Assembly (NCBI GenBank): GCA_043813215.1
Contig: JBDRLH010000015.1
Span: 1 to 36,185 of the forward strand
Direction of reading: 5' to 3'
DNA: 36,185 bases
Source of the DNA: Parcubacteria group bacterium
Lineage (GTDB): Bacteria > Patescibacteriota > Minisyncoccia > Minisyncoccales > JAQTPW01
Both the position numbers and the translations under genes were made by a program. The first letter of the stretch is position 1. Each line of letters begins with the position of its first letter. This document shows, one piece after another, positions 26,761-32,108 of the stretch. The notes under the pieces are model-generated. The model saw only the letters and a list, made by a program, of their open reading frames with translations, made no database searches and had not been told where the DNA came from.

Positions 26761-26890
26761 CCTTATAATTTTTTTTACTTCTTATAATCCATTTTCTATT
26801 GTTAAAGTTATACTCTCTCCTTTAATAAAAATAGGGGCTAAACCTCCTTTATTTTCTTTTTATCAAATTTCAAAACTATGTCAATTCAAG

Positions 26891-26924: not shown

Positions 26925-26997
26925 TGCGGGGTAGAGAACGGGTTATCTCGCGACTCTCATAAGGTCGAGAAGCTGGGTTCGAGTCCCACCCCCGCAA
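26925..26997 (+). tRNA. tRNA with CAT anticodon, initiator-like acceptor and D arms, atypical anticodon stem
   Basis: Cloverleaf: TGCGGGG/CCCCGCA, GAGA/TCTC, CGACT/GGTCG with loop CTCATAA, T loop TTCGAGT; CCA not encoded. Confidence 0.88.
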
Positions 26998-27088
26998 CAC
27001 ATACGAAATTACCCCGTGGTGAAAAAATGAGAACGAAGCGAACTAAAAAACCGAAAGTTTTTTGAGCAAGGAGTCGGGATAATTTCTT

Positions 27089-27161
27089 GCCGGCATAGCT
27101 CAGTGGTTAGAGCGAGCGCTTCATAAGCGTTAGGTCGTAGGTCCGAGTCCTACTGTCGGCA
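27089..27161 (+). tRNA. tRNA-Met(CAT), probably elongator (Ile2 not excluded)
   Basis: GCCGGCA/TGTCGGC, GCTC/GAGC, AGCGC/GCGTT with loop TTCATAA, GTAGG/CCTAC with loop TCCGAGT. Confidence 0.9.
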
Positions 27162-27177
27162 TCACGTAAAAAATTAT

Positions 27178-27253
27178 GGGCTGGTGGTGTAGCCCGGTCT
27201 AACACGCCTCCCTGTCACGGAGGAGATCACGGGTTCAAATCCCGTCCGGCCCG
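27178..27253 (+). tRNA. tRNA-Asp(GTC)
   Basis: GGGCTGG/CCGGCCC, CCTCC/GGAGG with loop CTGTCAC, T loop TTCAAAT, G73. Confidence 0.96.
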
Positions 27254-27256
27254 CAG

Positions 27257-27296
27257 AAACAAAAACATCCTGAGTCTAGAAGGATGTTTTGTTTTT
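27257..27296. terminator. Bidirectional terminator
   Basis: AAAACATCCT/AGGATGTTTT inverted repeat between convergent units. Confidence 0.8.
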
Positions 27297-27303
27297 AATT
27301 TAT

Positions 27304-27816
27304 CTATATTTCTTTTAAGTCAACTAGGGCTTTTTCATAAATCTCCATGACGCGCCTTGCCTCTTCTAAAGTTAATTTAAAATCAGGATCGTGGACTATA
27401 TTATTGCGAGTTTTATGAGCTTCCGAAACATCCGCCAAGTTGGGGATCGTAGATTCGGTCAGCTTTTCTAATCTTTCTCCCAAGGTCTCTCCGACAAAAC
27501 CTTCTTTTTTTAAAATATCGTCCAGTATCGAATCGGCTCCTGTGACCGCTAATTTATAATCTGATTCCAGGCCGGTATCTAGTTTTTGTTTTAATTTTTG
27601 CCATTGCCGATAAAGTTTTTTTTCTCCGTAAGGATGGAAGGTAAAAAATTCCTCCAAGTCCATTAATATCAGCCTTTTTAACCAGCTGGTATGAATCAGG
27701 GCAAAAACAATGAAACCGAAAAAAAAGGCAGAAATAATAATAAAAACAATCTTAATAATCAAAAGAATATTGTGGAAAGCGGGCGAATTTAAATATTGAC
27801 TTATTTCCGGAGGCAT
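27304..27816 (-). CDS. Membrane-anchored protein with a HEPN-like helical domain
   Basis: N-terminal TM helix (about aa 17-41); GETLGERL and RNNIVH (R-x4-H) in the C-terminal domain. Confidence 0.8.
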   Translation of the reverse strand: MPPEISQYLNSPAFHNILLIIKIVFIIISAFFFGFIVFALIHTSWLKRLILMDLEEFFTFHPYGEKKLYRQWQKLKQKLDTGLESDYKLAVTGADSILDDILKKEGFVGETLGERLEKLTESTIPNLADVSEAHKTRNNIVHDPDFKLTLEEARRVMEIYEKALVDLKEI

Positions 27817-27820
27817 AACT

Positions 27821-29236
27821 CTAATTTTTAATTTCTAAAAGATGGGCAATGTCAAAAATTTTATTTTCTTCAAATTTATTTGCGATAATCTGCAATCCGA
27901 CCGGTAATTGATTTATCATACCACATGGCAGGGAAATTGCAGGCAATCCGGCTAAATTGACGGAAATCGTGAAAATATCCGACAGATACATCTTCAAAGG
28001 ATCGTCAATTTTCTCACCAATTTTAAAAGCTGTCGTGGGCGAAACCGGGGTGAAAATAGCATCTACTTTTTCAAAGACCCTCTCAAAATCTTTTTTAATC
28101 AGCTCCCTGACTTTTTGAGCCCGCAAATAATATGCGTCGTAATAACCCGACGACAAAGTATAAGTGCCCAATATGATTCTTCTCCTGACCTCTGTACCGA
28201 AGCCTTTTTTCCGGCTTTTTAAATAAACGTCCAGCAAATTTTTGCCGTTTTCCGATAAGCCGTATTTTATTCCGTCATATCTTGCTAAATTTGCCGAAAC
28301 TTCAGCCGGCATAATAATATAATATGTCGCCAGGGCGTATTCGGTATGGGGCAGACTGATTTCCTCAATTTTTACCCCCATATCTTCATATTTTTTAATT
28401 GCCTGCTTGATAATTTTTTCAACCTCTGGGTCTATCCCCTCAATAAAATACTCTTTGGGTACGCCAATTCGTAAATTTTGATTTTTGATTTTTGAATTTT
28501 GAATTTCAGATTCAACCGAAGTTGAATCTAGCGGGTCTTTGCCTTTTATGGCGTCAAAAATCAACTGGCAGTCCTCAGCTGTTTTGGCTATCGGCCCTAT
28601 CTGATCCAGCGACGAAGCCATAGCCATTAACCCGTATCTGGAAACCGCCCCATAAGTCGGTTTTAGCCCGACTACGCCGCAAAACGAGGCTGGCTGGCGA
28701 ACAGAGCCTCCGGTATCCGATCCCAGGGAAAAAGGGCAAAAACCGGCCGCTACAGCCGCCGCAGACCCTCCGGAAGACCCTCCCGGCACCCTTTCTAAAT
28801 CGTGAGGATTTTTGGTAATCTGGTAAGCCGAATTTTCAGTAGAACTGCCCATGGCAAATTCATCCTGATTGGTTTTACCCAGAATTACCGCACCCTGCTC
28901 TTTTAATTTTTTTACAACGGTTGCGTCATAAGGGGCTGTATAATTTTCCAGAATTTTTGAGGCAGCCGTACACTTTATGCCTTCAACTAAGATATTATCT
29001 TTTACGGCACATGGCACGCCCGCTAAAATTGGCTGGCATTCTCCTTTTGCTATTTTCTCGTCAACTTCTTTTGCTTGGGACAAGGCCAAATCTTCCGTTA
29101 TATTTAAAAACGCGAATATTTCTTTATTCTCTTTTTTTATTTTATTCAAATAATTCTGGCAAATTTCAACGGCGGAAAATTCTTTTTTTGCCAAACCTTG
29201 GTTGATTTTTTTAATTGTTAATTCTTTTAATTCCAT
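27821..29236 (-). CDS. gatA: Asp-tRNA(Asn)/Glu-tRNA(Gln) amidotransferase subunit A
   Basis: Amidase signature: [37 protein letters not shown]. Confidence 0.98.
28476..28510. repeat. 7-nt tandem repeat within gatA (encodes [11 protein letters not shown])
   Basis: ttttgat ttttgat ttttgaa ttttgaa tttcaga. Confidence 0.75.
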
Positions 29237-29247
29237 AAATGTTTATT

Positions 29248-29276
29248 TTGACAATGCGTTCTATTTATCTTATGCT
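29248..29276 (+). promoter_or_regulatory. Promoter of the antisense micro-ORF unit
   Basis: TTGACA, 17 nt, TATGCT. Confidence 0.75.
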
Positions 29277-29333
29277 AAAAGTGGTTCTTTTCTTCTATTT
29301 TTGTCTTAGATAAGGAGAAAAGGAGGTAGCCAA

Positions 29334-29357
29334 ATGTTGCTTCTCTGGTTTCTCTAA
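29334..29357 (+). CDS. Putative micropeptide 1, MLLLWFL
   Basis: Perfect SD AGGAGGT (29321-29327) 6 nt before ATG; TAA stop. Confidence 0.5.
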   Translation: MLLLWFL

Positions 29358-29440
29358 ATTCCTTCACTACTATATCGTGTCTCCAGCAAAGAAGCGATAT
29401 AGTCCCTTTAAAGGTAATATTTAAAAGGAGGTATGGCCTT

Positions 29441-29467
29441 ATGAAAGTACTAAAGTCCCTGAAGTAG
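29441..29467 (+). CDS. Putative micropeptide 2, MKVLKSLK
   Basis: Perfect SD AGGAGGT (29426-29432) 8 nt before ATG; TAG stop. Confidence 0.5.
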   Translation: MKVLKSLK

Positions 29468-29516
29468 CAGCACCCTAGACGACGCCTCAGTCTTAAAATG
29501 AGGGCAAATGTCGAGC

Positions 29517-29553
29517 GAGGCTCTTTCTGATCTTCAGAAGAGCCTCTTTTTTT
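29517..29553 (+). terminator. Intrinsic terminator closing the micro-ORF unit
   Basis: GAGGCTCT-T-TCTGA/TCAGA-AGAGCCTC stem followed by T7; T tract on the + strand only. Confidence 0.85.
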
Positions 29554-29556
29554 ATT

Positions 29557-29835
29557 TTAAAAAACCGATTTTACTTTTAAAAATCCGTCTTTTTTATCGG
29601 GCGCCGAATCTAAAAGATTTTTATTGCCAAGCGGCTTTGCCTCATCTTTTCTGCTGACGTTTTCAATTGTTATGGCATGGTCGGCCGATTCTGCTTTGGA
29701 AATATCAACTTCTTTTAATTTTTCAACGTAACTCAAAACGGCAGAGAGTTCTTTTTGGAACCTCTCTGTCTCCTTATCATCCAATCCCAACCTGGCAAGC
29801 TTAGCAATGTGTTTTACTTCTTCTTTTGATATCAT
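29557..29835 (-). CDS. gatC: Amidotransferase subunit C
   Basis: MISKEEVKHIAKLARL...APDKKDGFLKV. Confidence 0.95.
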   Translation of the reverse strand: MISKEEVKHIAKLARLGLDDKETERFQKELSAVLSYVEKLKEVDISKAESADHAITIENVSRKDEAKPLGNKNLLDSAPDKKDGFLKVKSVF

Positions 29836-29836
29836 A

Positions 29837-30904
29837 TTATTTTGGGGGTTCCAGCTCTGCGGTTTCAACCAGCACGTCTTCTAATTCGTCTAAATTCTCT
29901 AGGACCATGCCCGCTCCCCTGACTACCGCGGTCATCGGATCTTCAATTATTTTTGTCGGTATTTTTGTTTCTTTGCCGACCAGAACATTTAAGCCGCGCA
30001 GTAAAGACCCTCCGCCTGCAAAATAAATGCCCGAAGCCATGATGTCGGCCAAGAGCTCGGGCGGACTCTCTTCTACCGCGGTTTTAATCTCGGCGACTAT
30101 CCTTTTTACCGATTTTTCCATGGCCCTCCTGATATCGTCATCGGAAACCAGTATCTCTTCGGGCAAACCCGTTACCAGATTTCTGCCCCTCATAGGAAGC
30201 TCTCTTTTTTCCTTTAGCGGATAAGCCGAACCAATGCCTATTTTTATAGCTTCGGCCGTCCGCTCACCTATTAAAAGCTTATATTCTTCCTGAGCAAACT
30301 GGATAATGTCTTCATTAAGCTTGTCGCCGGCGATTCTTAAGCTTTTTGACAAAACAATCCCACCCAAAGAAATGATGGCGATTTCTGTTGTCCCGCCGCC
30401 GATGTCAACGATAAAGTTTCCGCCGGCTTCTTGAATCGGGAGCCGGGATCCTATAGCCGCTGCCATGGGTTCTTCAATCAAAAAAACCTCTCTGGCTCCG
30501 GCAGATTTGCCCGCATCAATGACTGCTTTTTTTTCAACCTCGGTTACTCCGGAAGGAATGCCTATTATCACCCGAGGCCTCGGAGCCAAAAAAAATTTTC
30601 TCTTCTGGGCTTTTTCAATAAAATATTTAAGCATTTGTTCTGTCGCTTCAAAGTCGGATATTACGCCGTTGCGCAAAGGTCTTGTAGCAATTATATGAGA
30701 TGGCGTCCTGCCGACCATCTTTTTTGCTTCCTCGCCTATAGCCAAAATCTGGCCGGTTTTTTGGTTAATGGCCACCACACTTGGCTCCTGGATGACAATT
30801 CCCCTGCCCCCGACATAAACTTCGGAGTTTGCCGTCCCCAGGTCAATGGCGATATCTTCAGAAAATATTTTCCAAACCTTATTTAATATATTTTTCGATT
30901 TCAT
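29837..30904 (-). CDS. mreB: Rod shape-determining protein MreB (copy 1)
   Basis: IDLGTAN, EPSVVA, IEEPMAAAIG, VDIGGGTT, AGGGSLL. Confidence 0.96.
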   Translation of the reverse strand: MKSKNILNKVWKIFSEDIAIDLGTANSEVYVGGRGIVIQEPSVVAINQKTGQILAIGEEAKKMVGRTPSHIIATRPLRNGVISDFEATEQMLKYFIEKAQKRKFFLAPRPRVIIGIPSGVTEVEKKAVIDAGKSAGAREVFLIEEPMAAAIGSRLPIQEAGGNFIVDIGGGTTEIAIISLGGIVLSKSLRIAGDKLNEDIIQFAQEEYKLLIGERTAEAIKIGIGSAYPLKEKRELPMRGRNLVTGLPEEILVSDDDIRRAMEKSVKRIVAEIKTAVEESPPELLADIMASGIYFAGGGSLLRGLNVLVGKETKIPTKIIEDPMTAVVRGAGMVLENLDELEDVLVETAELEPPK

Positions 30905-32108
30905 TAATTTTTATCAATTTGGTTTCTTTGCTGTTTCTTTTTTTTATTTCAACCGATTTTTCCGCCAAGGTCTTTTCCGAAACGACTATTCTTTCGGGAA
31001 TTCCGATAAGATCGCAGTCGGCAAACTTTTCTCCGGCTGTTTTATCTTCCCTGTCGTCAAATAAAACTTCTTTGCCGGCTTCCGTCAGCTCTTTGTAAAT
31101 TTTTTCCGCAGCCTCGTTTTGCCCCAGGCTTATTAAGTGGGATCGGAAAGGAGCGATTGACTCGGGCCAAATGATACCATTTTCATCGTGATGAACTTCC
31201 ACTATTGTCCCCATCAGGCGCGACAAGCCAATCCCATAACAACCCATCAAAACTGCTTGTTCTTTACCGTCTTTGTCTTTAACCGATAAATCAAACGGTT
31301 TGGAATATTTATTCATCAGCTTAAAAATATTTCCCACTTCTATTGATTTTTTTTCTTCGAAATCTTTGCCTTGGCAATTTGGGCAGATTTTCACTTCGCC
31401 GAATATCTCTCGGTTTATTGCCTGGCTGCACTTTTTGCAAACGTAAATTACATCTTCTCCCGCCTCTGAAACAGTCTGGAATTCATGAGAGTATTTGGAA
31501 AAAGAACCTCCCGAGGCAAAAGTCAGAAAAGTTTTTTCCGAAATCCCCGCTCTTTGGAAAATTTTAAGATAGGCTTCTTTGGCTTTTTCATAGTAATCAT
31601 TCAGATCGTCTTCGGTTAAATGGAAAGAATACAGATCCTTCATGATGAATTCCCGGCCACGAAGGAGACCGGACTTGGCCCTTAGTTCCATTCTGAATTT
31701 ATTCTGAATCTGGTAAACATAACAAGGCAAATCTTTATAAGATTTTATGTATTTTTCCACCAAGGGCACGACTATCTCTTCGTGGGTCGGCCCGAGAGCA
31801 AACTCCCGGTCGCTTGAATCTTTTAATTTGAACAAATCATCCATCGAATCCCATCTGCCCGTCGTCAGCCAGTTTTCTTTAGGATGCAGGGTCGGCATTA
31901 ATATTTCTTGGCCGCCTATTAAGTTCATCTCTTGCCGAATAATATTTTCAATTTTTTCCATTACTCTTAAACCCAAAGGCAAGAAGGTATAAACTCCGGC
32001 CATTAGTTTATCTATAAAACCGGCTTTCAGTAAAAGCTTGGTATTGACAGAAATTTCATCTTTGGATACCTCTTTTTCAGTTTTTGTAAAAAGTTTTGAT
32101 TGCTGCAT
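30879..32108 (-). CDS. proS: Proline--tRNA ligase (short bacterial type, no INS editing domain)
   Basis: LGPTHEE, KFRMELR, RGREFIMKDLYSF, IEVGNIF, MGCYGIG. Confidence 0.95.
   Translation of the reverse strand: MQQSKLFTKTEKEVSKDEISVNTKLLLKAGFIDKLMAGVYTFLPLGLRVMEKIENIIRQEMNLIGGQEILMPTLHPKENWLTTGRWDSMDDLFKLKDSSDREFALGPTHEEIVVPLVEKYIKSYKDLPCYVYQIQNKFRMELRAKSGLLRGREFIMKDLYSFHLTEDDLNDYYEKAKEAYLKIFQRAGISEKTFLTFASGGSFSKYSHEFQTVSEAGEDVIYVCKKCSQAINREIFGEVKICPNCQGKDFEEKKSIEVGNIFKLMNKYSKPFDLSVKDKDGKEQAVLMGCYGIGLSRLMGTIVEVHHDENGIIWPESIAPFRSHLISLGQNEAAEKIYKELTEAGKEVLFDDREDKTAGEKFADCDLIGIPERIVVSEKTLAEKSVEIKKRNSKETKLIKINEIEKYIK

Follow-up and report, generated by a model that had tools for sequence, protein, structure and literature searches.

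The locus described here lies in a window of 36,185 nt, which is the whole of one contig (C15) in the assembly of a tiny groundwater bacterium of the Parcubacteria group. The assembly (G000) comprises 612,632 bp in 44 contigs with 39% G+C and is 94% complete as judged from marker genes. Two genes of the window, gatC and gatA, are separated by a 320-nt spacer, DNA that has been seen in this genome only. The genes that define the locus are as follows.

27821-29236, minus strand: gatA (Pfam Amidase, 527 bits)
29237-29556: gatC-gatA spacer, 320 nt
29557-29835, minus strand: gatC (Pfam GatC, 61.2 bits)
30904-29837, minus strand: mreB (Pfam MreB_Mbl, 449 bits)

GatA is 65-74% identical to its counterparts at 29 aligned loci of relatives. 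The neighbours also include a class II tRNA synthetase gene, again on the minus strand, and a DUF4145 protein; among these five neighbours there is no transporter, receptor, export or processing gene. Further along the window, at 26925-26998 on the plus strand, ARAGORN calls a third tRNA (Met, CAT) that the Rfam tRNA model does not report at its gathering threshold.

The gene order itself is conserved. The arrangement mreB-gatC-gatA recurs at 29 of 29 relatives' loci, and gatC-gatA at 79 of 80 loci from metagenomes, the remaining locus being too short. The first-pass annotation had remarked that gatC and gatA are normally adjacent, and our comparison set of 108 related gatC-gatA loci (relatives plus metagenome) bears this out. 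The spacer is at most 10 nt long at 75 loci, 11-100 nt at 29 (so at most 100 nt at 104 of the 108), 122 nt at one and more than 200 nt at three, each of which has different and unrelated content. A gap of 320 nt is exceptional. In the two closest genomes, which belong to the same family, the two genes lie only a few nucleotides apart.

The same junction was seen to carry quite different DNA elsewhere. At the G039 junction (L043, 551-1500) there is a 241-aa RAYT/IS200-like transposase flanked by GATGTTAGACATCGGATGTCTAACAT-type palindromes, at the L131 junction (736-1607) a gene for a 286-aa prepilin-type, pilin-like LamG protein and at the L085 junction (1260-1724) a GC-rich, non-coding stretch of 465 nt without an Rfam match. 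On comparison of loci, the gatC-gatA junction is a recurrent insertion site in the order.

The borders of the spacer are marked by two copies of an 8-bp direct repeat, TTTATTTT.

29242-29249: left copy of TTTATTTT, which provides the first two T of the -35 hexamer described below
29551-29558: right copy of TTTATTTT, which overlaps the T-run of the terminator and the stop codon of gatC

The copies flank a segment of 301 bp, and removal of one copy together with this segment leaves a spacer of 11 nt between the gatC stop codon and the gatA ATG, the normal arrangement. An exact 8-mer shared by both borders is found in three of the 106 gaps of at least 150 nt in the genome, this one included, giving a background of two in the 105 others; the repeat, a candidate target-site duplication, is therefore suggestive as a mark of insertion but is not proof. 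Among the inverted repeats listed, none lies at the ends of the 301-bp segment (29250 and 29550).

Contigs of related organisms from the same habitat jump from about 29222-29234 to 29554. We judge from the assembled reads that the insert is genuine and not an assembly artefact, because 29125-29584, with both junctions, recurs without a difference in a 460-nt contig of run X2, and because run X3, from another study, shows some depth at 29405-29451. By comparison of loci and contigs, the gap is established as a lineage-specific insertion of about 300 bp.

A relic duplication of gatC was considered as the origin of part of the spacer. The 31 nt at 29239-29269, immediately upstream of the gatA start, share 71% identity with the antisense strand at the 3' end of gatC (29568-29598). 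The likeness is marginal in a 60-nt window chosen post hoc (42 of 2000 shuffles); set against the whole gap it lacks significance, 103 of 500 shuffles scoring equally, and we rejected the idea.

The insertion carries signals of the kind that delimit a gene, all of them oriented alike, on the plus strand and opposite gatC and gatA.

29248-29276, plus strand: sigma-70-type promoter-like site, TTGACA (29248-29253), 17 nt, TATGCT (29271-29276), matching at 10 of 12 positions
29283-29553, plus strand: predicted RNA of about 270 nt, its start deduced from the -10 hexamer and its end from the T-run of the terminator
29517-29553, plus strand: intrinsic terminator, stem 29517-29530/29534-29546 (9 + 4 bp) followed by T7ATTTT

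Both hexamers and their spacing are thus as the first-pass annotation had read them, and no other site within 27000-32000 reaches 10 of 12. Of the 271 sigma-70-type sites at 10/12 or better genome-wide, 91 are intergenic, a strong enrichment. Such signals are used by this organism; the gene for its RNase P RNA lies between a TTGACA promoter and a hairpin-T terminator. The strong terminator claimed previously is also in place, with a stem of -19.8 kcal/mol ahead of its T-run. It ranks second by strength among the 52 promoter-to-terminator pairs found genome-wide, is predicted with pair probabilities of 0.89-0.94 and is canonical on the plus strand only; on the minus strand, GCTCGAC stands behind the hairpin in place of a U-run. 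Only one RNA run, X6, contains a near-identical piece of mreB (215 nt, one difference), and it has no contig on 29264-29545; this run is available as contigs only and is uninformative on expression.

We note that relatives with gatC-gatA spacers of 33-85 nt often have a hairpin of -11 to -25 kcal/mol just after gatC (L044, L048, L078, L086, L090, L104, L108, L119, L133 and L141 among others), frequently preceded by A-rich and followed by T-rich sequence. These hairpins may be intercistronic terminators or stabilisers. Because so many of these relatives also have one, the 'terminator' of the spacer may primarily be a gatC 3' hairpin.

Other orphan promoter-to-terminator units, with no ORF and no Rfam match, occur in the genome. 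They are G000:C25:15487-15615 (plus strand), a GC-rich RNA of about 90 nt without a blastn match in 60 relatives; G000:C40:3975-3740 (minus strand), a GC-rich RNA of about 200 nt immediately preceding tRNA-Glu; and G000:C25:21330-21215 (minus strand), an RNA of about 75 nt. A further promoter-to-terminator unit, of about 165 nt, is present in two nearly identical copies on different contigs (G000:C16:6379-6545 and G000:C43:4097-4260).

Between promoter and terminator there are two very short reading frames, each preceded by a perfect Shine-Dalgarno (SD) sequence. Their sequences, start and stop codons and spacings agree with the first description of them.

29320-29357, plus strand: SD1 AAGGAGGT (29320-29327), 6-nt spacing, mini-ORF 1 with ATG at 29334, MLLLWFL (7 codons), TAA at 29355-29357
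29425-29467, plus strand: SD2 AAGGAGGT (29425-29432), 8-nt spacing, mini-ORF 2 with ATG at 29441, MKVLKSLK (8 codons), TAG at 29465-29467

The remark that core genes lack SD sequences holds broadly, since this is an SD-poor genome: no SD core precedes the first start codon in 523 of 606 ORFs, as against 90% of random positions. A strong SD is used by a minority of genes, with AGGAGG in front of 4.3% of starts compared with 0.3% of random positions. Counting both strands, the 612,632-bp genome contains the heptamer AGGAGGT 56 times, upstream of ORFs of at least 87 codons at 13 of these sites, and the two copies considered here are 105 nt apart on one strand. Genes that are genuinely led by AGGAGGT have a spacing of 4-7 nt. 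ORFs of fewer than 30 codons whose ATG lies 4-8 nt behind an AGGAGGT number only four in the whole genome, and the spacer has two of them. In a genome so poor in SD sequences, and with only four such short ORFs, two perfect 8-mer SDs each with an ATG at a working distance are therefore not a chance pattern. Read by eye, the frame of mini-ORF 1 has many stops, and the ORFs of 20-49 aa in the gap either overlap the flanking genes or have no SD.

Elsewhere in the window, at 26848 on the minus strand, there is a further AAAGGAGGT that leads no ORF. About 200 nt downstream of it comes a 216-aa gene (26623-25973, minus strand) with an AAGGAGGT SD of its own, which by eye we take for an orotate phosphoribosyltransferase; AAAGGAGGT may be a leader element.

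The predicted RNA folds into the following elements, apart from the terminator.

29285-29324, plus strand: 5' hairpin, 29285-29296 with 29313-29324, pair probability 0.89; its 3' arm covers most of SD1 (29320-29324)
29335-29469, plus strand: long-range helix, 29335-29343 with 29461-29469, pair probability 0.91; it encloses the central hairpins
29369-29403, plus strand: central hairpin, 29369-29378 with 29394-29403, stems of 10 + 3 bp, pair probability 0.98; also an inverted repeat
29480-29513, plus strand: hairpin upstream of the terminator, pair probabilities 0.4-0.8, a weakly supported element

Two of the pairs in the 5' hairpin are G-U and would turn into A-C mismatches on the minus strand. 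The long-range helix, which covers AUG1 and the stop codon of mini-ORF 2, likewise has two G-U pairs, again a feature of the plus strand only. All of the hairpins proposed in the first-pass annotation exist and two of them are well predicted (0.89 and 0.98), but the one over SD2 has a pair probability of only 0.44 and that at 29480-29513 has values of 0.4-0.8. The probability of being unpaired is 0.09 for SD1 and 0.37 for AUG1. The predicted fold does not favour efficient translation of mini-ORF 1, because SD1 and part of AUG1 are buried in helices.

It had also been proposed that a module is repeated twice in an RNA of repeated architecture. The repetition shrinks to an exact 11-nt repeat, AAAAGGAGGTA, at 29318-29328 and 29423-29433; outside it there is no similarity between the two halves of the spacer. 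As for the architecture, the full 274-nt plus-strand RNA is more stable than expected (z = -2.41, with two of 200 shuffles as stable), but the body without the terminator (29283-29516) is statistically indistinguishable from shuffled sequence (z = -1.09, 29 of 200 shuffles as stable).

Searches for relatives of the insert were made at several levels. The whole window has only two tRNAs when scanned with Rfam 15 at gathering thresholds, which agrees with the earlier statement that no family could be recognised. At E values of up to 10 the best matches in 29100-29700 were PyrR (27.2 bits, threshold 54) and PVT1_5 (26.9 bits, threshold 60). A PyrR site was rejected, the match resting on the terminator and an AT-rich hairpin, with 3 nt against the 12-nt stretch of the model. 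By blastn, the gap has no second copy in its own genome. Against 60 relatives the only matches were T-rich or SD-like and 14-55 nt long (best E value 2.5e-4), and among 400 genomes of the order five gave matches at E values of up to 0.001, all of 20-28 nt, one of which is the SD of a pyrF-like gene in G109. A covariance model (R1) of 53 pairs, made by entering a single sequence twice, scores 248.7 bits on itself and 15-20 bits on the eight genomes that it matched among 149 relatives; most of the model is deleted in each of the four alignments displayed. Phage and plasmid collections searched in a distant mode gave no match. Exact probes of 27-35 nt had no match in viral contigs (two scans) or in genome contigs. 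A metagenome scan with GatC returned 80 loci, the best at 65% identity, with no near relative and no similar insert. The short T-rich or SD-like matches that recur across these searches are at chance level, and in the collections searched a homologue or a known family is absent. The literature searched on small RNAs or SD use in the group contained nothing bearing on the insert. The locus, as read from its DNA, is an orphan insertion that carries gene-like signals.

Our preferred explanation, which we put forward tentatively and regard as possible rather than probable, is that the insertion is a young orphan transcription unit on the plus strand, convergent with the mreB-gatC-gatA operon. The insert of about 300 bp would have carried a self-contained unit of promoter, RNA of about 270 nt and terminator, or would have created it on arrival. 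We infer that the plus-strand RNA is made. Expression of gatA most likely relies on read-through from gatC across the insert, because there is no minus-strand promoter-like site above 9/12 in or beside the gap. RNA polymerases from the convergent unit and from operon read-through would then collide, and the small RNA would pair perfectly with an intercistronic stretch of about 270 nt in the operon mRNA; either event would lower gatA expression or uncouple gatA from gatC. If the unit acts at all, it most likely does so in cis, by antisense pairing or by transcriptional interference. The predicted RNA overlaps neither the gatC nor the gatA coding sequence and is antisense only to the spacer that the insertion has made.

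The choice of the plus strand is supported by both SD-ATG pairs, by the U-run and by the four G-U pairs that the two main helices contain. Active peptides are the less likely purpose of the two strong ribosome-binding sites and their frames of 7 and 8 codons; more probably these sites load ribosomes or stabilise the RNA, or were left over from the donor DNA. Because its -35 hexamer and the T-run of its terminator each consist in part of the flanking repeat, the unit may have arisen by accident at insertion. It shows no conservation and is confined to one genome.

Nearly as likely as a cis-acting unit is an eroded, functionless remnant of foreign or mobile DNA. A cassette or fragment would have landed in the antisense direction and lost its coding part by deletion, leaving a promoter, two ribosome-binding sites with their first codons and a terminator, perhaps still transcribed. 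The setting suits such a history, with a junction recurrently invaded (by the RAYT-like transposase of G039 and the pilin-like LamG gene of L131, for example), an 8-bp direct repeat at the borders and a segment that is single-copy and confined to one genome. The product suits it as well, as both mini-ORFs resemble ordinary N-termini that run into early stops and the body of the RNA has no excess structure. Erosion is harder to reconcile with signals that are all intact, the -35 hexamer and both 8-mer SDs being perfect and the terminator stem unbroken, while of a longer frame there is no trace. Nor are there terminal inverted repeats at the ends of the 301-bp segment, and the phages, plasmids, viral contigs and genome contigs searched contain no donor. 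In the stricter sense of a MITE or insertion sequence recognised by terminal inverted repeats and multiple copies, the segment was rejected; it shows neither feature and is single-copy in the genome.

We also considered that the minus strand is the functional one, the spacer serving as a long gatA leader or intercistronic region with a gatC 3' hairpin and a structured regulatory 5' UTR, and the plus-strand signals being coincidental. Relatives whose spacers measure 33-85 nt commonly have a stable hairpin behind gatC, and gatA must be expressed across the spacer. Over 29283-29556 the minus strand folds equally well (z = -2.72), but without the terminator hairpin its folding is at the level of chance (z = -0.99, 38 of 200 shuffles as stable). 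No Rfam cis-regulatory family, T-box included, matches the minus strand of the spacer. The few-nucleotide spacers of the two closest genomes imply that a leader is not ancestral, and the promoter, the SDs and the U-run all suit the plus strand. We therefore consider a functional minus strand unlikely.

The first-pass annotation had proposed, as one option, a dedicated micropeptide system. On this view the RNA would encode two peptides, MLLLWFL and MKVLKSLK, that are secreted or have a regulatory role. What speaks for this is the quality of the initiation signals, perfect SDs at the optimal distances of 6 and 8 nt in a genome where AGGAGG precedes so few starts, together with the presence here of two of the four short ORFs led by AGGAGGT. 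The proposal does not stand well against the remaining evidence. The peptides are confined to one genome and have no homologues in the collections searched, and thus no evidence of purifying selection; the predicted fold sequesters both SD1 and AUG1; and the adjoining genes have no export, processing or receptor function that could make them partners. To our knowledge, there is no established precedent in bacterial signalling for peptides of 7-8 residues that come straight from their own start codon without a precursor. On balance such a system is quite unlikely. We think it very unlikely that the locus is a mini-gene recently acquired by this SD-poor, host-dependent, ultra-small bacterium, with a promoter of its own and the strongest ribosome-binding sites of the genome, whose products are a hydrophobic and a cationic peptide, each translated directly at a length of 7-8 residues and acting, for example, as signals or as membrane-active agents towards a host or neighbours. 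A pheromone or quorum-sensing locus was rejected, the neighbours containing no receptor, transporter or processing genes. Type I toxin-antitoxin systems have a hydrophobic toxin of roughly 18-60 residues and an overlapping antisense RNA. This assignment was also rejected; the hydrophobic ORF has 7 codons, and the fstAT model, whose threshold is 72 bits, reaches 16.5.

Least credible of all is a diverged housekeeping RNA that the Rfam models have missed, such as 6S or SRP RNA, although RF00013, RF00169 and RF01854 have no match in the genome; such an RNA would be expected to be conserved in relatives, which is not seen. 6S RNA forms a closed rod with a central bubble, whereas the predicted fold of the insert is a chain of local hairpins, and with no RF00013 match this identity was rejected. 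For SRP RNA, neither RF00169 nor RF01854 was found in the genome, and the gap has no match to them at E values of up to 10. RF00169 is missing from all 41 genomes examined, this one and 40 relatives of the order, as is the Ffh M domain (PF02978; 0 of 41), while the controls matched. Because the protein is missing too, no SRP RNA is expected and the insert is therefore not a hidden one. Loss of ffh and ffs in Parcubacteria has already been published (PMC4508563).

What the locus means depends on which of the two leading explanations applies. If the plus-strand unit is transcribed, it would offer a clean natural case of a new antisense RNA gene born by insertion, here into gatC-gatA, an essential, translationally coupled operon in a strongly reducing genome, with the empty-site state open to reconstruction. 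It would then bear on how small RNAs arise and on how tightly the subunits of the tRNA-dependent amidotransferase are controlled in minimal genomes. If it is a remnant, it would only document the gatC-gatA junction as a recurrent landing place of foreign DNA in the order.

Several known systems share features with the insert. The segment of about 300 bp resembles small non-autonomous (MITE-like) elements and promoters generated by insertion in its 8-bp direct repeat, in the choice of a junction that is invaded in other lineages too and in a -35 hexamer formed across the junction. It differs in that it has no terminal inverted repeats, is single-copy and has no related element that we could find.

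Leader-peptide regulators, among them the transcription attenuators of amino-acid operons and the translational attenuators of erm and cat, combine the elements that are seen in the spacer, namely a strong SD, a very short ORF, hairpins that mask an SD and a terminator. Here, however, the same strand has no gene behind these elements, the ORF that would be 'regulated' is 8 codons long and the antisense of gatC lies past the terminator. A transcription attenuator was rejected since what follows position 29553 is gatC on the opposite strand, and the spacer RNA has no convincing antiterminator alternative. An erm/cat-type leader was rejected in view of the 8-codon ORF after SD2 and its poorly predicted masking hairpin.

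The STAB-SD of cryIIIA is an SD-like 5' stabiliser of Gram-positive mRNAs that works through ribosome binding and not through protein production. The spacer RNA would similarly have a perfect SD-like sequence near its 5' end; in contrast to STAB-SD, this SD1 is paired with an upstream pyrimidine tract in the predicted fold.

A further parallel is GadY, a cis-encoded antisense small RNA opposite the gadX-gadW spacer of E. coli. Unlike RNAs of this type, the unit described here is a predicted RNA with two strong ribosome-binding sites, its spacer complement exists through the insertion alone and it is not conserved in relatives. Its own promoter and terminator opposite an operon, by which a cis-antisense small RNA is recognised, are present at the level of the sequence only. 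As with GadY-type RNAs, a small unit opposite an operon and complementary to its intercistronic stretch could, by analogy, shift the relative expression of the flanking cistrons.
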